Under the pieces are notes generated by a model. The model made no database searches, was not told where the DNA came from, and was given only the letters and a program-made list of their open reading frames with translations. Shown piece by piece: positions 2,381-48,275 of a stretch of DNA of 48,857 bases; the stretch's first letter is position 1, and each line of letters begins with the position of its first letter. The position numbers and the translations under genes are program-made. Origin of the DNA: a virus. Where the stretch lies: the UHGV virus genome UHGV-0138835; one strand, 5' to 3'.

Positions 2381-2408
2381 AACCCCGCTTCGCGCGGGGT
2401 TTTCTTTT
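2381..2408. terminator. bidirectional rho-independent terminator (stem CCCCGC/GCGGGG flanked by A-run and T-run)
   Basis: Hairpin ccccgc-ttcgc-gcgggg followed by ttttctttt on + and preceded by aaaaaataa; sits between convergent genes. Confidence 0.6.
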
Positions 2409-2655
2409 AGTAGTTAGCTACACAGTTAGAAGGGCTACCGATGCGGCGCATGTTGTGATCGAGTTCGTGACACCATTGACCAGTATAAGGCAGTTTTTCA
2501 GTGTCATAGACAAGATGCCCGTTAACATCATAAACAACATCCTGTGGAATTACTCCACTATTCGGCAGGTTATGCAATGCGGCTTCCTTATCAACAGCAC
2601 AGCCAGTAAGAGCTACAGCCGCAGCAAACAAAACCACTTTGAACATGTTTTTCAT
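2407..2655 (-). CDS. small lipoprotein (82 aa), candidate superinfection-exclusion / receptor-blocking lipoprotein (Cor/Llp-like by context only)
   Basis: N-terminal signal peptide MKNMFKVVLFAAAVALTGC with lipobox LTGC; antisense gene wedged between two tail-fiber genes. Confidence 0.55.
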   Translation of the reverse strand: MKNMFKVVLFAAAVALTGCAVDKEAALHNLPNSGVIPQDVVYDVNGHLVYDTEKLPYTGQWCHELDHNMRRIGSPSNCVANY

Positions 2656-2832
2656 TTTTAAAGCCTCATTCTCGTTTGTTCATCCGGTTCATCCGGTGGC
2701 TTAAATATCCGACAAAAGCACATTTCGTATATTGACACAAATCAACAAATACATTTTGTGTAAGCAGAAAATGCAACACAGATCACAAAATGGTAGAATT
2801 ATTCCGTTAATTAACAAAATGGAGTCATTGCG

Positions 2833-5800
2833 ATGATTTACACAACTGGAACAATTGCCATCAACGGCAATGCTGTTACAGGCACGGGAACAAACTTTTC
2901 CGCGCCGCTTTCTCTCATTCGTGTAGGCTGCACGCTCATTGCAATCGGCAATCCGGTGCAGATCTTTACCATCACAGAAATTAAAAGCGGTACTGAACTG
3001 TCAGTGACGCCAGCAGCTAACCCTGCAATCCCTGCGGGAACAAAATTTAGTATTCTGCTATCTGACTCAATCTCAGTTGATGGTCTTGCTCAGGACGTAG
3101 CTGAAACCCTGCGTTACTACCAGGGCAAGGAAACAGAGATCGCCGCCGCTGTCGAGTGGTGGGAAGATTTTGGCGGAGAAGGTCAGTTGGATCAGCTTCT
3201 TACCAACATTCGCGCAGAAACAGCCAAATCAACCGCCAATGCTCAAAAAACAGAAACTGACAAAAACGCAGCAGAAGCGTCAAAAACAGCGGCTGCAAAA
3301 TCCGCCACGGCAGCGAAAACATCAGAAACCAACGCTAAGGCAAGTGAGACAGCAGCAAAGACAAGCGAAACCAACGCCAAAACGTCAGAGAACAGGGCGC
3401 AAGAATATCTAAATCAAATGGGAAGGCTTACCAGTCCAATGGTTCAATGTGATTGGCCCGTTACAACTGGTACGACTGACGCTTACGTTAAGATAGCTAA
3501 AGTTACCAACCCAGGTAGCAGCTCCTGCCACATGACACTAATGATCACTAATGCCGGTAACTACGGGACAAGTTACGGAAACATTGATTTTGTCGAGATC
3601 TCCGCTCGCGGTTTTCCCGATGAACTGAACGCCGATAATGTATCTAAATACTTGAGTATCCGCCGCTTAGGTTCACCAAATCTGGCAACTGATAATCAGA
3701 TGCGTTATGGGCTTGTTAAGGGCGATAACTTTTTTGAGGTCTGGTGTCGTCAGCGAGCATTTACCGGAAGCGCAAAGGTCGCTGTACTGGCGCAGACTAA
3801 TCAAAACACGGAATTATACATTCCCGAAGGATTTGTTAAACAAGACAATGCACCATCAGGATTTATTGAAAGCCCGGCAGCAAGGATTTACGACCAGGTA
3901 AACAAACCCAGCAAGGCGGATTTGGGCCTTTCTAACGCTATGCTTATAGGCGCTTTTGGTCTTGGCGGTACTGGAATAGGGTTGACTGGTTACATGACTG
4001 ATCAGGAACTACTACAAGAGCTAAGGGCTAAAGGTGGGTGTTTCTGGAGATCAGGAAAACCAACAGGTAGCACGGCGACCATTTATAGCCACGGTTCTGG
4101 TATATTCTCGCGGTGCGCCGATACGTGGTCAGCGATCAATATCGACTACTCAACCGCGAAGGTTAAGGTCTATGCCGGTAACGACAATGGACTTAACAAT
4201 AACACTTTTGCCGTTAATGAGCTATACGGAACTAAAAACAAGCCGTCGAAATCAGATGTTGGACTTGGCAACGTAACGAACGATGCGCAGGTGAAAAAAA
4301 TCGGCGATGTTATGTCTGGTGACCTGGCGATCAAAAAAGGGACACCGTCATTCTTTCTGCGGTCAGACAGTGGAACCGCCCATGTATGGTTCCAAAATGC
4401 GGATCAGACGGAACGCGGCGTTATTTTTGCGCCTACAAATTCTGAGACGCTTGGTGAAGTTCACATCAGGGCTAAAAACGCAAAAGGTGAAACAAACGGT
4501 GATCTTATTGTTCGCCACGACGGGGTGGTTGAGGTTCAGAATCTCACAGCGGCTAAAAAAGCCAAAAGCGTAACCGCAGAATTTGCAAACACAAGCACTA
4601 GCTCCGATGATACCACGGTAAATATCAAAGGATCACAGCATACGCCTTTGGTTTTAACGCGCAACAACACAATTAAAAACTTATCCATTGGGTTTAAGGT
4701 TGATGATGTTGATCAAAAATACCTGGGTATAGCTGGCGACGGTGATTTGTATTTTGGTAGTTATTCTGACCACACAAAAAACAGCAAAGTGATCACACAA
4801 GCAATACTCGATAGCGGGGTAACGGTAGGCGGTAAAACAACCTTTTCTGACCTTGCCACATTCAGTGCTGGTATATATGGGGCCATAGAACCGGAAATAA
4901 TTAACAGCAAGACTGTAGATCTTAACAACCTTGTCATTAAGTCCTCTGATAAAGGTTCAGTTAAGTATTATCAATGCACATCTTCCGGGGCTGGTAACTC
5001 CATTACCAATAAGCCTGACGGCGTAGGCGGTAACTTTTTGCTACGTGTAGAATCTATTCGTAAGGTTACGGATTCAGATTATACAAACTTGCAAACCCTG
5101 GTTGGCACAGACACGAAACAAATATACGTTCGCTATTGTGAAAATGGCAATTGGTCCGCATGGAGTCAGGTTGTTGTTTCAGGAAGGAATCAGGATGTAA
5201 ACGTAAGGTCGTTAACCACTGGTACCCCTGTAAAATCTGGTGGCGGGCAAATTGATGTACTTGGGAGTACGTCAGATTATAGCGCGATGAATTGTACTGT
5301 GCGTGGTGTTGATAGCACTGGAACCAATTCGGCGTGGTCGGTAGGTACATCAGAAAGCACAGGAAAAATGTTGTACCTGAAAAACCACAGAAGCAGCGCT
5401 CAAGTGCTGTTAAATGGCGATGACGGCGCGGTGCAACTACTAAGCGGTACCGTCAACAGTGCTACAGCACAGGCGCTAACCATCAACAAAGATGAGGTTA
5501 ACTCAACTGCCGATTTAGTAATTAGAAAACAAACAGGGACTGGCAGTCGTTTTGCTTTACAGAACGCAGGTAATGCAGAACTACCGTTTTCTGTCAGTGT
5601 GTGGGGTTCCAGTACTCGACAAAACGTTTTTGAGGTTGCAACGTCTGCTGCGTATCTGTTTTATGCGCAAAGAACGCCAGCAGGCCAGTTGTTTGATGTA
5701 AATGGCGCTATTAATTGCACAACGCTGAATCAGTCATCAGACCGCGACCTTAAAGACGATATTCTCGTTATCAGCGACGCGACGAAAGCAATCCGTAAAA

Positions 5801-6150
5801 TGAACGGATACACCTACACGCTCAGGGAAAACGGGATGCCTTATGCTGGCGTTATTGCACAGGAAGTAATGGAGGCGATACCAGAAGCTGTGGGATCGTT
5901 TACTCATTACAGTGAAGAGTTGCAGGGACCAACGGTTGACGGCAACGAGCTACGCGAAGAAACGCGTTATCTCAATGTTGACTACGCCGCAGTAACTGGC
6001 TTACTTGTCCAGGTTGCACGCGAAACGGATAACCGCGTCACCGAACTGGAAGAGGAAAATGCCAGCTTACGCGCTAACATTGCTGTAATGGATGAGCGTA
6101 TCGCAAAACTTGAAGCGCTTGTCAGTAAGTTGACCGGAAGCGAAGAATAA
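2833..6150 (+). CDS. tail fiber protein with C-terminal intramolecular chaperone (peptidase S74-like) auto-processing domain
   Basis: 1105 aa; the C-terminal ~130 aa (DLKDDILVISDATKAIRKMNGYTYTL...YLNVDYAAVTGLLVQV...EEENASLRANIAVMDERIAKLEALV) matches the recalled endosialidase/T5 L-shaped-fiber chaperone domain; SD GGAG 8 nt upstream. Confidence 0.8.
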   Translation: MIYTTGTIAINGNAVTGTGTNFSAPLSLIRVGCTLIAIGNPVQIFTITEIKSGTELSVTPAANPAIPAGTKFSILLSDSISVDGLAQDVAETLRYYQGKETEIAAAVEWWEDFGGEGQLDQLLTNIRAETAKSTANAQKTETDKNAAEASKTAAAKSATAAKTSETNAKASETAAKTSETNAKTSENRAQEYLNQMGRLTSPMVQCDWPVTTGTTDAYVKIAKVTNPGSSSCHMTLMITNAGNYGTSYGNIDFVEISARGFPDELNADNVSKYLSIRRLGSPNLATDNQMRYGLVKGDNFFEVWCRQRAFTGSAKVAVLAQTNQNTELYIPEGFVKQDNAPSGFIESPAARIYDQVNKPSKADLGLSNAMLIGAFGLGGTGIGLTGYMTDQELLQELRAKGGCFWRSGKPTGSTATIYSHGSGIFSRCADTWSAINIDYSTAKVKVYAGNDNGLNNNTFAVNELYGTKNKPSKSDVGLGNVTNDAQVKKIGDVMSGDLAIKKGTPSFFLRSDSGTAHVWFQNADQTERGVIFAPTNSETLGEVHIRAKNAKGETNGDLIVRHDGVVEVQNLTAAKKAKSVTAEFANTSTSSDDTTVNIKGSQHTPLVLTRNNTIKNLSIGFKVDDVDQKYLGIAGDGDLYFGSYSDHTKNSKVITQAILDSGVTVGGKTTFSDLATFSAGIYGAIEPEIINSKTVDLNNLVIKSSDKGSVKYYQCTSSGAGNSITNKPDGVGGNFLLRVESIRKVTDSDYTNLQTLVGTDTKQIYVRYCENGNWSAWSQVVVSGRNQDVNVRSLTTGTPVKSGGGQIDVLGSTSDYSAMNCTVRGVDSTGTNSAWSVGTSESTGKMLYLKNHRSSAQVLLNGDDGAVQLLSGTVNSATAQALTINKDEVNSTADLVIRKQTGTGSRFALQNAGNAELPFSVSVWGSSTRQNVFEVATSAAYLFYAQRTPAGQLFDVNGAINCTTLNQSSDRDLKDDILVISDATKAIRKMNGYTYTLRENGMPYAGVIAQEVMEAIPEAVGSFTHYSEELQGPTVDGNELREETRYLNVDYAAVTGLLVQVARETDNRVTELEEENASLRANIAVMDERIAKLEALVSKLTGSEE

Positions 6151-15614: not shown

Positions 15615-15869
15615 TCATTCCTCCGGCAATGCAATGTCATAAATGTCGCCGTATTCGTCAGCGCGTTTAATGAATCCTTTGCGGATCAATGAATTTAATG
15701 CGTCAACAGTAGTATGCAGTGGTAGTTCGCACACTTTTGCGATCTCTTCGCGTGAAGCATGTGCGCGGCCTTTGTTGTCTGCCTTTTCTGCAAACGCAAT
15801 TAAGACAAGTTTTTGGATCGGGCTGTTAAGTTTTACGTTCCATACTTCATTCATCATGTGCATACTCAT
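15615..15869 (-). CDS. winged-helix HTH protein, first gene of the leftward early operon (Cro position)
   Basis: 84 aa, divergent from the repressor gene; HTH-like segment SREEIAKVCELPLHTTVDALNSLIRKGFI. Confidence 0.5.
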   Translation of the reverse strand: MSMHMMNEVWNVKLNSPIQKLVLIAFAEKADNKGRAHASREEIAKVCELPLHTTVDALNSLIRKGFIKRADEYGDIYDIALPEE

Positions 15870-16174
15870 CTTGTTTTTCTCCTATGGTTAGAGTGAACGC
15901 GCGGGCGGGCATCCCATTAGCATTAGATAGCAGTGACTGACCGCTCAACAGATCCCGCCGTTGCGTGATATTTGTTTTTCGCTTCGCAGCGACACCGGAT
16001 TTTTAAAGAGCTTAAGGAATTGGCCTTTTGTGCTTTCCTTTATCTTTTTTCTTGCATCATTGCAACTATGGCCTTACCTTGTCTGCAAGTTTACATAATG
16101 GCTTTAACAGGTCAAGGCTTGAAAAACACGTTTTGTGACTTGCATCAAACTTTTTTAGGTTATAGGGTAGCGAC
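15870..16174. promoter_or_regulatory. divergent immunity regulatory region (OR-like) with repeated CTTGCATCA motifs and a candidate leftward boxA/boxB
   Basis: CTTGCATCA at 16051 and 16139; TTTACATAATGG at 16090; minus-strand boxA-like GCTCTTTAAAAA (plus 16000-16011) followed by a hairpin at plus 15979-15992. Confidence 0.45.
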
Positions 16175-16853: not shown

Positions 16854-16946
16854 TTCGAAAAAACACCAAAACGTAAACAGAAAACGCTATTTATTGTTTA
16901 AATATCAATAGTATATAAAATATTTTAAAAAAGTATACAAAATGGA

Positions 16947-16975
16947 TTGACTCGATGTTATACGGGGAGTATATT
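16947..16975 (+). promoter_or_regulatory. candidate sigma70 early promoter (pL-like): -35 TTGACT, 17-bp spacer, -10 TATATT
   Basis: Hexamers and spacer read directly; upstream of the nut site and the N-like gene. Confidence 0.5.
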
Positions 16976-17110: not shown

Positions 17111-17401
17111 ATGAGCGTTACAATTATGTATGGAAAATGTGATAGCAAAATGAACGCCAGGGAACGCAGAAGGATAAAAAGAGAAAACGAAAGAAAATCA
17201 TCACCTGCAATTAATAAAACAGACAATGTGGATAAAGCTATTCGATTTGCAAACGAGGAAAGGTGCAAACCAAATAGCATTAAAGAACGTCGCAAAGGAT
17301 CAGTAAAATGGTATACGGAAAATGAAAGCGGCAGCTACTACCACGCAACGCAACCACGCCATTTAGGGGAGAAACCCCTGGATAAAGTCCGTTACCATTA
17401 A
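17111..17401 (+). CDS. N-like transcription antitermination protein (P22 gene 24-like)
   Basis: N-terminus MSVTIMYGKCDSKMNARERRRIKRENERK resembles recalled P22 gp24 (MTVITYGKS…AKTRRHERRRKLA) with an arginine-rich motif; first gene after promoter and nut. Confidence 0.6.
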   Translation: MSVTIMYGKCDSKMNARERRRIKRENERKSSPAINKTDNVDKAIRFANEERCKPNSIKERRKGSVKWYTENESGSYYHATQPRHLGEKPLDKVRYH

Positions 17402-23103: not shown

Positions 23104-23587
23104 CAGGTTACTGGCCTGCGTTTATGTCGCCGTTTTCGTAATCATCAACCTAATTGTTAACCATTGCGGCCCGTGGGTAATTCCGATCACCACGGTAGCC
23201 GCTGTGTGTGTCAATATGATGATCCGTGACTTCCTGTTATATGACGGCGGCCTGAAATGGTCGGCTACAACATGCGCCGCCGCTGGCGCAATCACGGTGC
23301 TGATAAATTACGATGCTGGAATGGTGGCGATTGCGTCATTCGTTGCGGTTGTTTCCGGTGCGCTTATTTCTGGCGGCGTTTACCGGGTTTTACCTGGTGA
23401 TTTCGATTCGAAACGATGGCCTGCAAATATAGCTTCAGCCATCGGTGATGCGTTGATTTTCCCTACGCTATCGTTCATGGCATTTATGCCTGAAATATCA
23501 GCTATGCAGTTCATCTCAAAAATGGCAGCGGTAACGGTGATCACTATCATCATGCGCCGCTATTTCACGTTTGAGGGAAGAAAATGA
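23084..23587 (+). CDS. integral membrane protein (~167 aa, multiple TM helices); very tentatively VUT/YhhQ-like
   Basis: Strongly hydrophobic; weak resemblance to recalled YhhQ segment (AS..G[DN]…F…F.AF); start at ATG 23084. Confidence 0.4.
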   Translation: MKKVTIDRLLACVYVAVFVIINLIVNHCGPWVIPITTVAAVCVNMMIRDFLLYDGGLKWSATTCAAAGAITVLINYDAGMVAIASFVAVVSGALISGGVYRVLPGDFDSKRWPANIASAIGDALIFPTLSFMAFMPEISAMQFISKMAAVTVITIIMRRYFTFEGRK

Positions 23588-24111
23588 ATTGGGAAGATTA
23601 TTTTATATACAATCCAGACACGGGTAAATTGTACTGGAAATGTAGAAATGATATAGATGAATCAAGGCGTAAACAATGGAATGCGTGCAACGCTGGTCAT
23701 GAAGTTGGATATATTGGCGGTAGCGGTGGTTATCTTAACACAGCGCTTACCGTAGGCGGGAAGCGTTATAATTTAAAAGTTCACAGAATATGTTATGAGA
23801 TGTACTATGGCCCAATACCTGAAGGTAAGGAGGTTGATCATATAAATCACATTAAAACAGACAATCGAGCCGTCAATCTTGAATTAAAAGACCATAAAGA
23901 TAATATGCGCAATATGTCTTTGATGGTAAACAATACCAGTGGATGCGCTGGTATCCATAAAAATAAACATGGTAAATGGGTTGTTAGAATAGGCGGAGGC
24001 AAAAGAGGCGAGAGGGTTTATATAGGGTGTTTTTCTGATATTAATGACGCAATAAAAGCACGACGCGACGCTGAAAAAGAGTATGGCTATCATGAAAACC
24101 ACGGCAAATAG
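23584..24111 (+). CDS. HNH homing endonuclease with AP2-like DNA-binding domain
   Basis: HNH core HRICYEMYYGPIPEGKEVDHINHIKTDNRAVNLE and AP2-like GIHKNKHGKWVVRIGG…YIGCFSDINDAIKARRDAE. Confidence 0.8.
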   Translation: MNWEDYFIYNPDTGKLYWKCRNDIDESRRKQWNACNAGHEVGYIGGSGGYLNTALTVGGKRYNLKVHRICYEMYYGPIPEGKEVDHINHIKTDNRAVNLELKDHKDNMRNMSLMVNNTSGCAGIHKNKHGKWVVRIGGGKRGERVYIGCFSDINDAIKARRDAEKEYGYHENHGK

Positions 24112-24370
24112 AACAACCCGCCAGCCGCCGCGCGGCTTTGCCAGTGCTGTATTCCTTGCTAACGACCGGGCCATCACGCGTACTACGCTCAACCGCGTTT
24201 TACCGGACTAAAGTTTACAAAATGGCGTCATTGCGTGATGTGGATCACATAATGGCGATTTTCACCTTGTTCTGACGTATCCATTTTGTATACTTCAAAC
24301 AAGAAAAATGCTCTTTAAAAATCCGGTAGCGCTGAAATGCGTAGAAATCACCTGAAAAGGAGAGAGCATT

Positions 24371-24547
24371 ATGCCTTTTGATAATTACCAATGGCATGAC
24401 GACTATGAACGAGAGAGCGTCATGCGTGCAATGTGCAATGTATGCAGCACGAAGAAAGGAGGCTGTAACGAGTGCAACGAATGCTTAGAACATTGGCTAA
24501 GGGCCGGACACGCCGAAAGGCTGAACGAAACAGAGAATCAAAAATAA
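24371..24547 (+). CDS. small Cys-rich (zinc-ribbon-like) protein, 58 aa
   Basis: Strong SD AAAGGAGAG 7 nt upstream; CNVCSTKKGGCNECNEC; below ORF-track cutoff. Confidence 0.35.
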   Translation: MPFDNYQWHDDYERESVMRAMCNVCSTKKGGCNECNECLEHWLRAGHAERLNETENQK

Positions 24548-24561
24548 TCGGGGTGGTTTTT

Positions 24562-25167
24562 ATGCAAAACCCTAAAAAACCCATAAGACGCCGTTGCAAA
24601 TGCTGCGGCGTTTTTTTTGAACCTAAATATCACAATCAAACGTGGTGCAGCGATGAATGTCTGGAAGAACTGAAGTTTGATCAGCTATGCCGCGAACGTG
24701 AAAAGGCTATGAAGGCTATGGAGCGGAAGAAACGCCGTGACAGCCAGCGTGAGGAACGCAACAGGAAGCGGAAACAGTTAAATCCGCGCAGCTACTGGAT
24801 TAAACAGGCGCAGGCCGTATTTAATGCCTATATCCGCGAACGTGACGCGCTATTGCCGTGCATATCCTGCGGGACTTATTACGGTGAGCAATGTTCATGG
24901 GATGCGGGACATTACAGGACGGTAGCCGCTGCCGGACACCTTCGCTTTAACGAGGATAATTGCCACAAACAATGCAGGCACTGCAACCAGACATTAGACG
25001 GCAACATCGGAGGGTATCGCCCAGCACTGATTCGAAAAATTGGCCTCGCCAGGGTGGTGGCGCTGGAGAACAACAACGAAACTCACAAATGGACGATAGA
25101 AGAATGTAAGGAAATCATAAAAGTCTATCAGGCGAAATTAGACGCCTTAAGGAGAAAGGCAGCATGA
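24562..25167 (+). CDS. ninG: NinG (Rap) recombination protein
   Basis: Strong match to recalled lambda NinG (RRRCK…C…PRSYWIKQAQ…N.FIRERD..LPCISCGT….WDAGHYRT.AAA..LRFNE.N.HKQC..CNQ…GN…YR..LI.RIG……E.N…H.WTIEECK.I). Confidence 0.85.
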   Translation: MQNPKKPIRRRCKCCGVFFEPKYHNQTWCSDECLEELKFDQLCREREKAMKAMERKKRRDSQREERNRKRKQLNPRSYWIKQAQAVFNAYIRERDALLPCISCGTYYGEQCSWDAGHYRTVAAAGHLRFNEDNCHKQCRHCNQTLDGNIGGYRPALIRKIGLARVVALENNNETHKWTIEECKEIIKVYQAKLDALRRKAA

Positions 25168-25571: not shown

Positions 25572-25750
25572 AAAACGAAGTTAAAGATCTGCAAATAGAT
25601 ATTCAGCGCGATGAGCATGATTTAGCTACAGTCCGACAAATACAGGCTTTTCACATGAGAGAACTGCTTGCGCTGAAAGAGCTTGAAAGAAAGTTGGTCC
25701 AGTCAATATCTGATCGCAAAAGACTGGTTGCGCGTTACAGGGGAAAATAA
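25568..25750 (+). CDS. hypothetical protein (60 aa)
   Basis: ORF translationally coupled between rusA and Q. Confidence 0.3.
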   Translation: MKNEVKDLQIDIQRDEHDLATVRQIQAFHMRELLALKELERKLVQSISDRKRLVARYRGK

Positions 25751-26472
25751 TGAATCTGGAATCAATTCTTAAATTCCACTTCCCAAAATCACCGCGTTTG
25801 TCAGATGAAAGCCGGGGCACGTCCCCGGATGCGCTTAATACCACGGACGCACTAACTGCCGCAGGTATGGCGCAATCGCGCGTAGAGCTTGGTTATAGCG
25901 CTTTTTTGGGGAAGATGGAACTATCACAAGCCGAAAAACATAAGGCCGTAGTTTTGCTTACAGAGCGTTTAAGGGCTATGGCAAAAGATTATGAATACGT
26001 CATGGAACTGGACGAGGCCAAACGCAATGATCTCATTATTCTTGTTGCCGTTTTCGCGTTTCGGGATTATTGCCAGAGTGCAGCGACCGAAAAAGTTTGC
26101 CCGGAATGCGGCGGATATAAATTTACGTTTGACGAATACGGAGAAAAACACCTTTGCAAAAAATGCAAGGGGCATGGGAAAGTTCTTAATCATTGTAAAC
26201 AATGCAAGGGCCGTGGCGAAGTGCCGGATAAAGCAGCCAGCGAAGCGGCGGAAATGCCAGTATTCAAAACGTGTCAGCATTGCGGCGGGCGCGGGTACTC
26301 GCGTTTCCCTGTAGATCTCGTTCGGCAGGCTGTCAATCAGCTTGTCTTTCCGGTAAGCCGATCAACATGGTGGAAGAAATACCGCGCTTTCTATGAAGAC
26401 GCCATTGCTGAATTGTTCAAAGAAGAGGTGCGGGCAGATAACGAAATTAAACGAGTTACGCGGGGTGAATGA
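25750..26472 (+). CDS. Q: late-gene antitermination protein Q (lambda Q family)
   Basis: N-terminus MNLESILKFHFPKSPRLSD closely parallels recalled lambda Q (MRLESVAKFHSPKSPMMSD); Cys-rich zinc-binding region. Confidence 0.8.
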   Translation: MNLESILKFHFPKSPRLSDESRGTSPDALNTTDALTAAGMAQSRVELGYSAFLGKMELSQAEKHKAVVLLTERLRAMAKDYEYVMELDEAKRNDLIILVAVFAFRDYCQSAATEKVCPECGGYKFTFDEYGEKHLCKKCKGHGKVLNHCKQCKGRGEVPDKAASEAAEMPVFKTCQHCGGRGYSRFPVDLVRQAVNQLVFPVSRSTWWKKYRAFYEDAIAELFKEEVRADNEIKRVTRGE

Positions 26473-35615: not shown

Positions 35616-35650
35616 TTTCTATTTTTCGCGTAGCAACGCGTAAACATGTA
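35616..35650 (+). promoter_or_regulatory. conserved element with tandem CGCGTA (10-bp spacing), copy 1, in portal 5' leader
   Basis: tttctatttttcgcgtagcaacgcgtaaacatgta; a near-identical copy lies at 48240-48275 upstream of the M gene. Confidence 0.4.
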
Positions 35651-44260: not shown

Positions 44261-44339
44261 TTTCTTATCCTCTTTTGCTTCCTCCGGTCAATCCGGTCTT
44301 TTAAATCCCTTTGCTCTATCCCTTTCCTTTATCTTCTTT

Positions 44340-44406
44340 ATACAAAATGTACTCGTTGAAGTGAAGCCATTTTGTATAAAATAGAGACATAGATCACATT
44401 TTGTAT
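44340..44406. promoter_or_regulatory. inverted/direct repeats of ATACAAAATG / CATTTTGTAT in the divergent region upstream of the tape-measure gene
   Basis: ATACAAAATG 44340-44349; CATTTTGTAT at 44368-44377 and 44397-44406. Confidence 0.45.
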
Positions 44407-44417
44407 GAGGTTAAATC

Positions 44418-47400
44418 ATGTCAACAAATTTGGGTACAATTTACTACGAGGTTGACGCGAAAACGGGTCAGCTTCTGACTGTTCAACGCGATGTAGATCG
44501 CGCAACTGGCAAAATGGAAAAGGATTTGGAGCGCGTGGATAGTGCCGCTACTCAGGCAAGTAAGTCACTGTCAAAACTATCCTCGATTGCCAGCGCCCTG
44601 GGTGCTGCAATGGCAGCGAAAAAAATCATTGAGTATGCAAACGCCTGGCAGGAGGTGAATAACAGGCTAATCAATAGCGTTCGTGCTGGTGAATCGCTGG
44701 CAGACGTTAATCAGCGTGTATTTCAGATCGCGCAAAATTCACGAAGCGACCTTGATGCTACGGCAGATCTTTACGGTAAATTAGAGCGCTCGACGCGCGA
44801 CGCTGGTTTATCGACGAAAGCACTTGGTGATATGGTTGAAACCATTAACAAAACATTCCGCATTTCTGGCGCTTCTGCCGCTGAAGCAGAAGGCGGGATC
44901 CGTCAGTTGGGTCAATCCCTCGCCAAAGGTGTTTTGAATGGCGATGAATTTAACTCCGTTACAGAAAACGCCACCAGGCTGTCAGAGGGTTTAGCTAAAT
45001 CACTGGGCGTATCGTCGGCAGAAATGCGCAAGATGGCAGCAGAAGGGAAAATCACCCGTGAAGCTATCATTAAAGCCCTTAAGGAAATGAAAGCGGAAGT
45101 TGATGCTGAGTTTTCTAAACTCACCCCAACTATGCAGGAGGCTTTCACTGTTGCAGGCAACAACGCAGCTAAATTTTTCGGCAGCAATTCGTCAATTATG
45201 GGCGGGATTGGTGCTTTTAATTCGGCAGTTGTAACCCTGTCAGAAAACCTTAACGAAATAGCTACCGCATTTATTGGCCTTGCCACTGTGATGGGTGGCA
45301 GAGTGGTAAATAAATTCGTAGCTGCAACAGCAGAGGCATTAACTAACGCTCAGGCAACCAGGGCACAAACGGCAGCGGCACGGCAGGCCGCTCAGAGTGA
45401 ATTGGCGCTAGCTAACGCTCAGGTGGTATCAGCACGGCAATCAGTAGCGGCGGCGGCGGCAAGGCTGAGAGAGGCGCAGGCTTATGCTGCGGCAAATGCC
45501 GGAACAAAATTCGAAGTTCAGACGCTGAAAGAGTTGGCTGTAGCCAAAGCACAGAACACAGCGGCATCAAACGCCCTTACTGCGGCAGAGCAGCGCCTTG
45601 CTGCGGCCCACACTGCGGCGGCGGCTAATGCAGGGCTACTAAAAACAGCATTTAGCGCTACTCTGGGCGCGATCGGCGGTATCCCTGGCGCGTTAATGCT
45701 TGCTGTTTACGGGTTGACAGCATATGTAGATCACGTAGATCAAACAGCAGAGGCAAACCGCAACCTTGCTGATTCAGTGGATGTTAGTACCGAATCACTG
45801 GAGCGAATGAGCAAGGCGGCTAAACTGGCTGGCGCAGATAAACTACAAATATCAATGGGTCAGTTAGAGGAAGACATTGACAGTCTTAACAAACAGATTG
45901 ACCAGGACACGCAGGCGCTGGAACTGAATAAGCGGGCACTGGAGAACGCCGAGGAGGGATCACGCGCTTACGCCAACCTATCGAAAGCTAATCAGGAAAT
46001 CACAGCCCGCCTGACCAGGGAAGAAGCACAGCGTGAAGATATTCTCGACCGCCTTAATCAAATGCAGCGCAAATATATTTTGCTTATGCAGGATACAGAT
46101 CCGCTAATGAAGACCCTTGCCACTTCATTGGGGTTGGTGGCGGATGCATACGGAAGAATCACCACAGAAGCAGAACGCGCAGCAGCAGCAACGCAACACG
46201 CTTCAGCAGCGCTTAACGCAGATCAACAAGAACTAATAGATCTGGCAAACCGCCGCCTGGAACTGGCAAAACTCGACTCCAAAACAGCCAGCAGGGAAAA
46301 GGCGATTGATGGGTTTAAGCGTGAGGCTGAGAAAGCAAACCTGACCGGGGAAGCGTATGAAAAATACATGGCTACAATGACCAAAGCATACGACACCGAG
46401 CAGAAACGCGCCGAAGCTGAAAGAAAGGCCAATCAAGGGAAGAAAACTGGCGAAAGCGAGGAAAAAAAACGTCTAAAAGAGGCTGAACGCCTACGCAAAG
46501 AGCTTGAGAAACGGGGACAGAATGTTGCAGACAAATACAACGTCGAAGCAGCCGCGCAACGTAAACTAAAAGAGGATCAGAAAGCACTAAACGCAGCATT
46601 AGAAAGCGGCAAAATAAGCGCGGAACAATATAATAAGGCATGGAAGGAATTAATTGGAACCGAGGAGCAACGCAAGCGCCAGGCTGGCTGGGATAATCTG
46701 GTAAACAATGAGCTGCAACTACGCGGGCAGCTAGACCCAATTCAGCAGGCGATGAACGAATGGGCGGTTCGCAAACAAATGCTCACAGATTTAGGCGCTA
46801 CAGAGCAATATATGAGGGAGCAAGAAAAAGCGCACGAGAGGGAAATGCTATCACTTCAGTGGGAGAGGTATAAGGCGCAGTCATTGACCAACCAACTGTT
46901 AGGTGATGCCGTTGATGCAATGAGCGGATCTGCAACTAACGCGCTTGTCGGCCTGATTAACGGTACTCAGAGCTGGCAACAGGCGCTTGCTAACATTGGC
47001 AATACGATTCTGTCATCCGTGATCGGTACGCTTGTTCAGATGGGCGCTGAATGGGTCAAGCAGCAATTAATAGGGGAGGCTGCCAGTGCCGCCGCAACAG
47101 CAAAGGCAATGGGCGAGGCGGTGGCGTTAAGTTCTGCATGGTCCACCCCGGCCTACCTAGCAAGCGTGGCAACAATGGGCGGCGCAGCGACGGCGGGATC
47201 AACAGCGATGGCCACCGGACTTGCTGGAGCAAAAGCGCTTGCTCTGGGTGGCGCTCGTTATAACGGCGGTGCGGTTAATGGTGGTAGCCTGTATCGCGTA
47301 GGGGAACACGGGATACCGGAGCTATTCCAGACGAGCAACGGGCGTCAGTATATGATTCCTGGTGAAAATGGCAGGGTCATTCCTGGCCGCGATCTTTTCA

Positions 47401-47567
47401 GCGGTGGCGGCATCAATATGCCTGTAAACATTAACGTTCAGACCACAAACGGGTTTAGCGATGAGGACAGTCGCAGGCTTGAACAAACGATGGAACGCGT
47501 AGCAATGAAAATGATGGCAAGGGAATCGCAACGACCGGGAGGAATGTTGCAACCGCGCCGCAAATAA
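44418..47567 (+). CDS. tail tape measure protein
   Basis: 1049 aa, Ala/Gln/Glu-rich helical, position before the M gene. Confidence 0.85.
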   Translation: MSTNLGTIYYEVDAKTGQLLTVQRDVDRATGKMEKDLERVDSAATQASKSLSKLSSIASALGAAMAAKKIIEYANAWQEVNNRLINSVRAGESLADVNQRVFQIAQNSRSDLDATADLYGKLERSTRDAGLSTKALGDMVETINKTFRISGASAAEAEGGIRQLGQSLAKGVLNGDEFNSVTENATRLSEGLAKSLGVSSAEMRKMAAEGKITREAIIKALKEMKAEVDAEFSKLTPTMQEAFTVAGNNAAKFFGSNSSIMGGIGAFNSAVVTLSENLNEIATAFIGLATVMGGRVVNKFVAATAEALTNAQATRAQTAAARQAAQSELALANAQVVSARQSVAAAAARLREAQAYAAANAGTKFEVQTLKELAVAKAQNTAASNALTAAEQRLAAAHTAAAANAGLLKTAFSATLGAIGGIPGALMLAVYGLTAYVDHVDQTAEANRNLADSVDVSTESLERMSKAAKLAGADKLQISMGQLEEDIDSLNKQIDQDTQALELNKRALENAEEGSRAYANLSKANQEITARLTREEAQREDILDRLNQMQRKYILLMQDTDPLMKTLATSLGLVADAYGRITTEAERAAAATQHASAALNADQQELIDLANRRLELAKLDSKTASREKAIDGFKREAEKANLTGEAYEKYMATMTKAYDTEQKRAEAERKANQGKKTGESEEKKRLKEAERLRKELEKRGQNVADKYNVEAAAQRKLKEDQKALNAALESGKISAEQYNKAWKELIGTEEQRKRQAGWDNLVNNELQLRGQLDPIQQAMNEWAVRKQMLTDLGATEQYMREQEKAHEREMLSLQWERYKAQSLTNQLLGDAVDAMSGSATNALVGLINGTQSWQQALANIGNTILSSVIGTLVQMGAEWVKQQLIGEAASAAATAKAMGEAVALSSAWSTPAYLASVATMGGAATAGSTAMATGLAGAKALALGGARYNGGAVNGGSLYRVGEHGIPELFQTSNGRQYMIPGENGRVIPGRDLFSGGGINMPVNINVQTTNGFSDEDSRRLEQTMERVAMKMMARESQRPGGMLQPRRK

Positions 47568-48239: not shown

Positions 48240-48275
48240 TTTCTCATTTTTCGCGTAGAAGCGCGTAAAGATGTA
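48240..48275 (+). promoter_or_regulatory. conserved element with tandem CGCGTA, copy 2, in the M-gene 5' leader (with TATAAT at 48222-48227 upstream)
   Basis: tttctcatttttcgcgtagaagcgcgtaaagatgta; about 32 of 35 positions shared with 35616-35650. Confidence 0.4.

Follow-up and report, generated by a model that had tools for sequence, protein, structure and literature searches.

Why should the sequence that directly precedes the start codon of a phage tail fibre gene recur, nearly unchanged, in a gap among the early genes where it starts no gene? The question is raised by UHGV-0138835, a viral genome of 48,857 nucleotides (nt; below, the window, i.e., the whole stretch of DNA analysed), which represents a temperate coliphage of the mEpimmI group with mEp021 and mEp554 as relatives. 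The element concerned is a 19-nt sequence (the 19-mer), with one copy in the leader of the tail fibre gene and one in the gap between an HNH endonuclease gene and ninG (the nin gap), upstream of the gene for the Q-type antiterminator:

2814-2832, plus strand: copy 1, ACAAAATGGAGTCATTGCG, in the 5' leader of the tail fibre gene
24217-24235, plus strand: copy 2, ACAAAATGGCGTCATTGCG, in the nin gap, with GGCG at the Shine-Dalgarno (SD) position

The answer that we favour, and to which we give an even chance of being correct, is that the copies would be paralogous regulatory cassettes whose local roles have diverged, the nin copy bordering a control region of terminator, promoter and nut site for ninF, ninG, rusA and Q.

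The 19-nt repeat and its conservation in relatives

The initial annotation had reported that the 19 nt before the tail fibre start recur with one mismatch in the nin gap, and the two copies are indeed 18/19 identical and on the same strand. They are the only matches in the 48.9 kb searched when up to 3 mismatches are allowed, and 100 dinucleotide-preserving shuffles gave a mean of 0.02 matches and never two. In a local alignment the likeness extends over 27 columns, 25 of them identical, and includes a single 1-nt gap (TTAACAAAATGGAGTCATTGCGATGAT against TTTACAAAATGGCGTCATTGCG-TGAT; z = 9.1 relative to shuffles), and the match breaks off sharply at both ends. The 19-mer is composite: its first 9 nt are an over-represented word, ACAAAATGG, and its last 10 nt, (A/C)GTCATTGCG, are the SD sequence and spacer of the tail fibre gene, which occur at three sites only, i.e., the tail fibre gene, the nin gap and the junction upstream of the tape-measure gene, where relatives carry a third copy. 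A generic SD-plus-start pattern is thus not the whole of the likeness, since the 5' half is a promoter-associated word and the 3' half a specific leader segment.

For the nin gap we compared 34 distinct sequences, which were fetched via the neighbouring ninF gene or by BLAST and not via the repeat itself. All 34 carry the 19-mer, including those only about 82% identical across the region, with no change in 15, one change in 16 and two in 3. Column identity is 94.5% over the 19-mer but about 72% in two variable blocks of this gap, which argues for a constraint beyond that of starting a gene; judged by these columns, the nin copy is constrained and not decaying. Three further elements that had been described for the gap were all found:

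24238-24252, plus strand: four-codon open reading frame (ORF) ATG TGG ATC ACA TAA, separated from copy 2 by TG
24282-24291: inverted CCATTTTGTA
24371-24547, plus strand: 58-amino-acid (aa) zinc-ribbon ORF, the first gene 3' of the nut site nutR2 (phrog_30170, E = 5e-44)

As an initiation region copy 2 fails: the SD position reads GGCG in 33 of the 34 relatives (GGAG, the tail fibre variant, is seen in L014/L217), the ATG that follows the 19-mer is ATA in 11 of 34, and the ORFs that start here, of 4 or 17 codons, are not conserved. The suggestion that the four-codon ORF is a fossil gene start has to be abandoned with the ATG.

Copy 1, by contrast, has the layout of an initiation region, with the SD sequence GGAG (2822-2825) 8 nt before the ATG at 2833 of the 1105-aa tail fibre ORF, and the mEp021 record annotates the same ribosome-binding site. 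Among 36 tail fibre leaders of relatives the 19-mer shows 0-4 changes (median 1); GGAGTCATTGCG is near-invariant, whereas the ACAAAATGG half varies, with ACATAATGG as the commonest variant and ACGAAATGG, ACAAGATGG and ACAAAACGG as others. More distant tail fibre homologues have a different leader, cctGGAGAAAACATG. The leader is kept beneath at least four different upstream modules, and a -10-like hexamer stands 6 nt before GTTAATTAAC in all relatives, irrespective of the upstream sequence. Promoter-like sites were ranked with our own sigma-70 position weight matrix (PWM), the scores of which are indicative only. Two features lie upstream of copy 1:

2771-2799, plus strand: predicted promoter, the best promoter-like site of the tail fibre region, ATGCAA-17-(TGg)TAGAAT (top 0.009% by PWM)
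2751-2759, minus strand: word copy A1, ACAAAATGT

The spacer of this candidate promoter holds a further copy of the word (A2, 2785-2793), and a start near 2806, as predicted, would place the 19-mer at about +9 to +27.

At the junction upstream of the tape-measure gene the following features are found:

44342-44360, plus strand: third copy C1, in the window ACAAAATGTACTCGTTGAA
44365 to 44337, leftward: predicted promoter-like site TTCACT-17-TATAAA, directed towards the morons
44356-44382, rightward: predicted promoter-like site TTGAAG-15-TAAAAT
44367-44375, minus strand: word copy C2, inside these back-to-back sites (44337-44382)

Among the 45 junctions compared, ACAAAATGGAGTCGTTGAA is present in 12, and a single one has ...GTCATTGAA, 17/19 identical to the tail fibre copy. 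Conservation of the junction module is about 90% across about 45 relatives and persists where the leftward genes differ and the tape-measure protein has only 31% identity. Its neighbourhood is related to other control sequences of the genome: 44322-44339 is 17/18 identical to the pL leader (16033-16050), the leaders of the two leftward morons are paralogous (2665-2707 and 44264-44307) and both contain a tandem CCGGAT-type repeat, and the flank of A1 (2742-2763) is 86% complementary to 44338-44359. The presence of a third copy before the tape-measure gene speaks for a common descent of the cassettes. The half under constraint differs by site, i.e., the SD half at the tail fibre gene, the word half at the tape-measure junction and both halves in the nin gap, a pattern that fits one ancestral cassette with divergent uses.

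The two readings first proposed for the repeat, a recombination scar with a fossil gene start or a shared promoter/leader element, therefore each survive in part. Of the former, a common descent probably stands and the fossil start does not. Of the latter, the leader role at the tail fibre gene and the promoter link of the 5' half stand, but the 19-mer as a unit is no promoter: the best promoter-like site precedes it at the tail fibre gene and follows it by 50 bp in the nin gap, and at the tape-measure junction it overlaps -35- and -10-like hexamers.

Other elements were noted beside the copies. An RGATCACA element with a Dam site (GATC at 2781-2784, 24243-24246 and 44391-44394) adjoins a word copy in all three regions; the GATC is lost in several nin-gap relatives, which read GGTCACA or TGTCACA. 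Upstream of the tail fibre leader, an FNR-type palindrome, TTGAC-N4-ATCAA (2732-2745), reads as a perfect TTGAT-N4-ATCAA in many relatives. It is located 41.5 bp from a predicted leftward start (-10 GATATT, 2704-2709), in class II geometry for the lipoprotein moron at 2407-2655, which hints, as a match to the consensus and no more, at anaerobic control of this moron.

The word family and a proposed control region of the nin gap

The word ACAAAATGG occurs in 10 exact copies in the window, compared with 0.7-0.9 expected under Markov models of order 1-4. With one mismatch allowed, three clusters of three become apparent:

2751 (minus), 2785 (plus), 2814 (plus): tail fibre region
24217 (plus), 24247 (plus), 24281 (minus): nin gap
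44342 (plus), 44367 (minus), 44396 (minus): upstream of the tape-measure gene

The word is also the tail of a 15-mer, AAGTWTACAWAATGG, of which the window has four exact copies, each in an early control region; when up to 2 mismatches were allowed, 6 matches were not reached in any of 100 shuffles. At the two early promoters, which were located by a promoter scan, the arrangement is as follows:

16087-16101, plus strand: 15-mer at pL, the reverse complement of which is the pL -10 TAAACT plus 8 spacer bases
16115 to 16088, leftward: pL, TTGACC-16-TAAACT
16931-16945, plus strand: 15-mer at pR, one base upstream of the -35 TTGACT
16947-16975: pR, TTGACT-17-TATATT

The 15-mer at pR is invariant in 33 distinct relatives although their pR spacers vary; at pL, 23 distinct relatives retain it and differ elsewhere in the spacer. 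Our own PWM ranks pR first and pL eleventh in the window, and the best promoter-like site of each of the three cluster regions is a word-bearing position. In the nin gap, two 15-mers in inverted orientation enclose a series of elements:

24211-24225, plus strand: left 15-mer B1, AAGTTTACAAAATGG, the left arm of the inverted repeat, overlapping the first 9 nt of the 19-mer
24226-24257, plus strand: imperfect hairpin, predicted terminator t4 (TERM_4 of the mEp021 record, window 24225-24258)
24234-24249: CRP-type palindrome cGTGA-N6-TCACA inside the t4 hairpin, core 9/10 identical to TGTGA-N6-TCACA
24258-24263, plus strand: T-rich tail of t4 (AUUUUC, 4 U)
24267-24294, plus strand: candidate promoter TTGTTC-16-TATACT (own PWM, top 0.017%; -35 3/6, -10 5/6)
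24281-24295, minus strand: right 15-mer B3, AAGTATACAAAATGG, overlapping the -10 TATACT, its columns 97% identical in relatives
24309-24321, plus strand: boxA of nutR2, TGCTCTTTAAAAA
24329-24342, plus strand: boxB hairpin of nutR2, GCGC-UGAAAU-GCGU

B1 is 15/16 identical to the pL -10 region, and 24279-24295, which contains B3, is 17/17 identical to the stretch beside the pR -35. Beyond the 15-mer, pR and the nin gap agree, when compared by eye, at only about 10 of 40 bases, as random sequences would. The copies differ in symmetry: B3 is a near-palindrome (GTATACA-AAA-TGGATAC, arms 6/7), whereas the copies at pL, pR and B1 are asymmetric.

The ascending arm of the t4 hairpin is the 3' half of the 19-mer, which thus forms the left flank of the hairpin. 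The hairpin folds at a free energy of about -17 kcal/mol. In mEp021, t4 is marked as "predicted" (PMC11893012). In the 12 of 34 relatives with TTGTG, the CRP-type core matches TGTGA-N6-TCACA perfectly; its half-sites, GTGA and TCACA, never vary although 12 different spacers occur between them, a pattern that the stem and loop of the hairpin would give as well. The centre of the palindrome (24241.5) is about 60-61.5 bp upstream of a predicted start near 24301-24303, which would be the geometry of a class I CRP site, although this is a consensus match only, and the 4 CRP-like matches in the window compared with 1.3 expected are no significant enrichment. The candidate promoter has the layout of pL: a 16-nt spacer ending in CCATTWTG, a -10 TAWACT, followed by a nut site identical in boxA and spacer. 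The last 8 bases of its promoter spacer are CCATTTTG, those of the pL spacer CCATTATG. Identity reaches 89% in the columns of its -35, compared with about 72% in the flanks; only one sequence has an indel, and the predicted start is about 8 nt before boxA.

The nut site itself is nutR2. This identity follows from the match to boxA and boxB and from the published position: mEp021 has three nut sites, of which nutR2 is located downstream of the methyltransferase gene (PMC11893012). The site in the window is 81% complementary to nutL (15975-16011) and aligns with nutR1, and in RM9245, the most divergent relative, boxB shows a compensatory change from G.U to C-G.

Taken together, we envisage the 19-mer as belonging to a small intergenic cassette, which duplication in the mEpimmI lineage would have spread among the regulatory junctions, each copy now serving a different local job. 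At the tail fibre gene the cassette would be a working 5' leader, with SD GGAG, 8-nt spacer and ATG. In the nin gap it would start no gene and form the left border of a compact control region upstream of Q, in the order left 15-mer, t4 hairpin with CRP-type palindrome, T-rich tail, weak -35, right 15-mer with -10, and nutR2. Unmodified pR transcripts would stop at t4, and a second, pL-like promoter would fire about 8 nt ahead of boxA, so that its transcripts might load the N-like Gp17 independently. The repeats themselves, their excess over expectation, their conservation and nutR2 as such are observed, whereas the activities of this promoter and terminator, the binding of CRP, and duplication (and not convergence) as the source of the three copies are what we infer.

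Several results weigh against this scheme. At a match length of 17-19 nt, duplication and convergence are inseparable. The t4 hairpin was not called by a separate terminator scan, folds only marginally better than shuffles (z = -1.8) and has a short T-run. The -35 of the candidate promoter matches at 3/6 positions only, the promoter is absent from the stricter promoter scan, and our PWM gives many high scores inside genes. Finally, the 8 spacer bases beside the pL -10 and the 15-mer beside pR are conserved beyond the usual demand of RNA polymerase, which points to a bound factor and not to inheritance alone.

Competing explanations

Such a factor is at the heart of the main rival, which we consider unlikely, i.e., that the 15-mer is the operator of one early regulator, either the CI-like Rep or a Cro-like protein. 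The protein would lie over the pL -10, contact the pR -35 and clamp the nin promoter between inverted sites about 70 bp apart, possibly with looping; Q would be silent in lysogens, and the nin copy of the repeat would be kept for its 5' part, which would serve as an operator, the extra 10 nt being inherited baggage. The number of perfect copies, exactly four, each of them in an early control region, and their retention at pR while the promoter spacer varies and at pL while its remaining part varies accord well with this; conservation at the level of the spacers is better explained by it. The near-palindrome of B3 would suit a repressor site, and a promoter upstream of Q would presumably need to be shut off in a lysogen. 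A hint comes from two IMG/VR contigs (L196 and L198) with a Rep homologue that is 37% identical, and more so in its N-terminal helix-turn-helix (HTH): three (A/G)GTATACA words lie between their divergent HTH genes, and the 9-mer AAGTATACA of this control region opens the 15-mer copies beside pR and at 24281-24295. However, that only B3 is dyad-symmetric is unusual for a dimer of the HTH_3/S24 type, and pL and pR have a single copy each instead of the usual multiple operators. Rep is 91-98% identical in every relative found, hence there is no co-variation of repressor and site to compare. Better candidates for Rep operators seem to be palindromes of the type CTTGCA-N4-TGCAAG near pL and the rep promoter (16051-16066, 16077-16088 and 16139-16150), the arms of which are conserved in relatives while their centres vary. 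The rep promoter itself has a near-leaderless appearance (TATAGG, 8 nt, ATG).

A bolder form combines both ideas: the 15-mer would be a regulator site and the nin gap a CRP-assisted, operator-clamped and hitherto unrecognised second entry to the late switch, firing into nutR2 and then Q. We judge this to be quite unlikely. In this form, immunity and host cyclic AMP would both gate Q independently of transcription from pR, and the weaker copies of the word would tie the tail modules, or the leftward morons, to the same regulator. Of the consensus sequences for sigma-54, IHF, Fis, TyrR, LexA, OmpR and ArcA, compared by eye only, none fits across the copies, and a literature search for the sequence words returned unrelated primer matches only.

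Decidedly unlikely, in our view, is a pure recombination scar, in which illegitimate or short-homology copying of the tail fibre leader, or of the start of an ancestral small gene, left a copy without present function. The sharp ends of the match would be expected of such an event, the SD sequence is broken, L014/L217 carries GGAG at the nin site, and the three copies open the same short frame, M-(E/A/Y)-S-L-(R/K). The ORF from the internal ATG has 17 codons in the window and mEp021; in mEp554 it is about 38 codons long, and other relatives have stops or a frameshift in it. The mEp554 version is annotated as mEp554_44 (38 aa, L002 2876-2989); beginning at the internal ATG of the repeat, it extends across the t4 hairpin, the candidate promoter and boxA, and many relatives have it truncated or frameshifted. 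Judged by this lack of conservation, it is probably no gene. A functionless scar is, however, difficult to reconcile with a copy that is among the best-conserved parts of the gap, that occurs in all distinct relatives, and the 5' part of which belongs to the family of the 15-mer with its four exact copies.

Constraint of this kind might also act on RNA. In pR transcripts 24217-24225 could pair with 24282-24290, giving a structure of about 85 nt around t4 that might serve for processing, by RNase III or otherwise, or as an attenuator; to this we give a slim chance. The interval 24210-24300 folds at -28 kcal/mol (z = -4.9; none of 200 shuffles as good), one-sided changes keep G-U pairs on the plus-strand RNA (U-A to U-G at two pairs, in 7 and 5 sequences, and both changes in L229), and a comparable inverted repeat of 12 bp is present at the tape-measure junction (z = -6.2 for the minus strand). 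Against this, the inverted repeat of the nin gap folds equally on both strands, as any DNA palindrome does, and the ACATAATGG variants (L206, L223) and a change in L224 break the outer stem without compensation. None of the 27 pairs shows a two-sided change in the 34 distinct sequences; the shuffle controls are flat, and t4 and the outer stem are without covariation. RNA structure of the nin interval may, therefore, exist but is unsupported by covariation. In Rfam, no family reached the gathering threshold anywhere in the window; the match to isrQ (17.9 bits; cut-off 50) was sub-threshold and was not used, isrQ being located in an unrelated Salmonella island (PMC2330248). The same slim chance includes, as an alternative, an antisense RNA from the gap that would pair over 19 nt with the tail fibre leader and block its SD sequence. 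It would require a leftward promoter, and none is credible: the best, ATCACG-16-TAAACT, is in the top 0.27% only, and candidates at B1 and in ninF score weakly, the -35 and -10 of the latter landing on coding bases and on the ninF start.

That the internal ATG opens a translated five-codon leader peptide, tuning the downstream gene, seems to us highly improbable. The frames concerned are:

2819-2836: MESLR-stop at the tail fibre gene, the stop overlapping the tail fibre ATG as ATGA
44347-44364: M(E/Y/C)SLK-stop at the tape-measure junction (relatives L101-L144)

The five-codon ORF with its ATG is kept in 38 of 45 tape-measure junctions, and the ATG in 27 of 36 tail fibre leaders. Changes at the tape-measure junction are mostly synonymous or conservative (TCG/TCA, TTG/TTA/CTG, AAG/AAA, TAA/TGA), which is suggestive in small numbers. 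These numbers are too small to test, however, and the same bases form -35-like hexamers on both strands, an alternative cause of the pattern. Furthermore, no SD sequence precedes the internal ATG at any site, 8 tail fibre and 5 tape-measure copies have an ACG start, and the stop is lost in the nin copy. A chance likeness of two leaders, for which the AT-richness of intergenic DNA and the ATG within ACAAAATGG might be held responsible, is effectively refuted by the shuffles and alignment score, the conservation of the repeat and its third copy.

Gene context and comparison with known systems

The control region of the paralogous-cassette reading is set in the following gene context:

2407-2655, minus strand: lipoprotein moron, exclusion-type
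2833-6150, plus strand: tail fibre ORF, 1105 aa (PHROG tail fibre, E = 4e-270)
15615-15869: HTH_36 protein, 84 aa
16175-16822: CI-like repressor Rep, with HTH_3 and S24 domains
17111-17401: homologue of the N-like Gp17 (weak N_peptide match, E = 0.008)
23584-24111: HNH endonuclease (HNH_3)
24112-24211, plus strand: 3' remnant (last ~100 nt) of a dcm-type cytosine methyltransferase gene
24562-25167: NinG
25750-26472: Q-type antiterminator
44418-47567: tape-measure protein

The nin region is 91-94% identical to that of mEp554, mEp010, mEp021 and others, and of 5426 complete E. coli genomes, 35 carry related prophages. The mEp021 homologue of the zinc-ribbon ORF is annotated as "putative NinF protein". 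The dcm-type methyltransferase gene is intact in relatives, including mEp021 and mEp554, whereas in the window it is mostly replaced by the HNH gene. The prophages of RM9245 and E21845 have an HNH gene upstream of an intact dcm, and in STEC306-308 the HNH gene adjoins the nin gap. Elsewhere in the window, a J-like central tail fibre ORF (78-2375) contains seven tandem 108-nt units at 360-1270, 63-72% identical to the reference copy. A 30-nt direct repeat, ATTTTTCGCGTAGNANCGCGTAAANATGTA, occurs at 35621-35650 and 48246-48275 with 90% identity; the former copy ends in the ATG of an ORF at 35646 and the latter has an ATG at the matching position. This may represent a further leader duplication within the genome.

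Gut coliphages of the mEpimmI group are common and were described only recently; oddly, they have a third nut site for which no rationale has been stated. A promoter just before nutR2 would, if real, explain that site, and the 15-mer common to pL, pR and the nin gap would be a handle on the silencing of Q in mEpimmI lysogens. For annotation, caution is advised with small ORFs of the nin gap such as mEp554_44, which are not conserved. Otherwise the situation is an ordinary one, in which short regulatory cassettes are reused at the mosaic junctions of temperate phages, and known kinds of phage regulatory architecture cover everything found here. New are a third copy of the repeat, the 15-mer family and the promoter candidate before nutR2, all of them predictions at the level of sequence.

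In phage lambda, pL is paired with nutL and pR with nutR, and the terminators tR2-tR4 are situated upstream of Q. The lambda nin/nut system and the Gp17 system of mEp021 resemble the window in having an N-like antiterminator, boxA and boxB, and a predicted terminator between the early genes and Q. Lambda, however, has two nut sites and no promoter inside nin, whereas the window has a third nut site with a pL-like candidate promoter about 8 nt ahead of it, bracketed by 15-mers. The antitermination function of Gp17 in mEp021 has been reported by a study as cited in PMC11893012, which itself mentions neither the candidate promoter in nin nor the repeat.

The placement of the 15-mers also invites comparison with repressor sites. 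Distal or flanking sites and looping are known from temperate phages, e.g., OL-OR of lambda and FL/FR of coliphage 186. In the window, as in these, one short sequence occurs at each of the early promoters and again at a third, distant locus, where two copies are inverted about 70 bp apart around a candidate promoter; unlike them, most copies are without dyad symmetry, and there is one copy per early promoter. Stoperators of mycobacteriophage L5 and other cluster A phages are many asymmetric repressor sites scattered across intergenic DNA, which is reminiscent of a strongly over-represented, asymmetric word of 9-15 bp at intergenic junctions, including those of structural genes. The window differs from them in the mixed orientation of the word relative to transcription, its low copy number (~12-15) and a repressor of the lambda CI type.

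Very short leader ORFs, a four-codon one that follows the nin copy and a five-codon one within the element, recall the bar minigenes of lambda, two-codon ORFs in transcribed spacers, but they have no SD sequence, their conservation is weak or ambiguous, and nothing hints at toxicity or translation. Conserved boundary or "linker" sequences at the mosaic joints of lambdoid phages have reportedly been described in comparative papers on HK97, HK022 and HK620. The tape-measure junction, about 90% of which is kept while the genes on both sides are swapped, is similar to these, and so is the tail fibre leader; what sets the window apart from lambdoid linkers is the additional repetition of its short element inside a single genome and the tie of this element to promoter hexamers.

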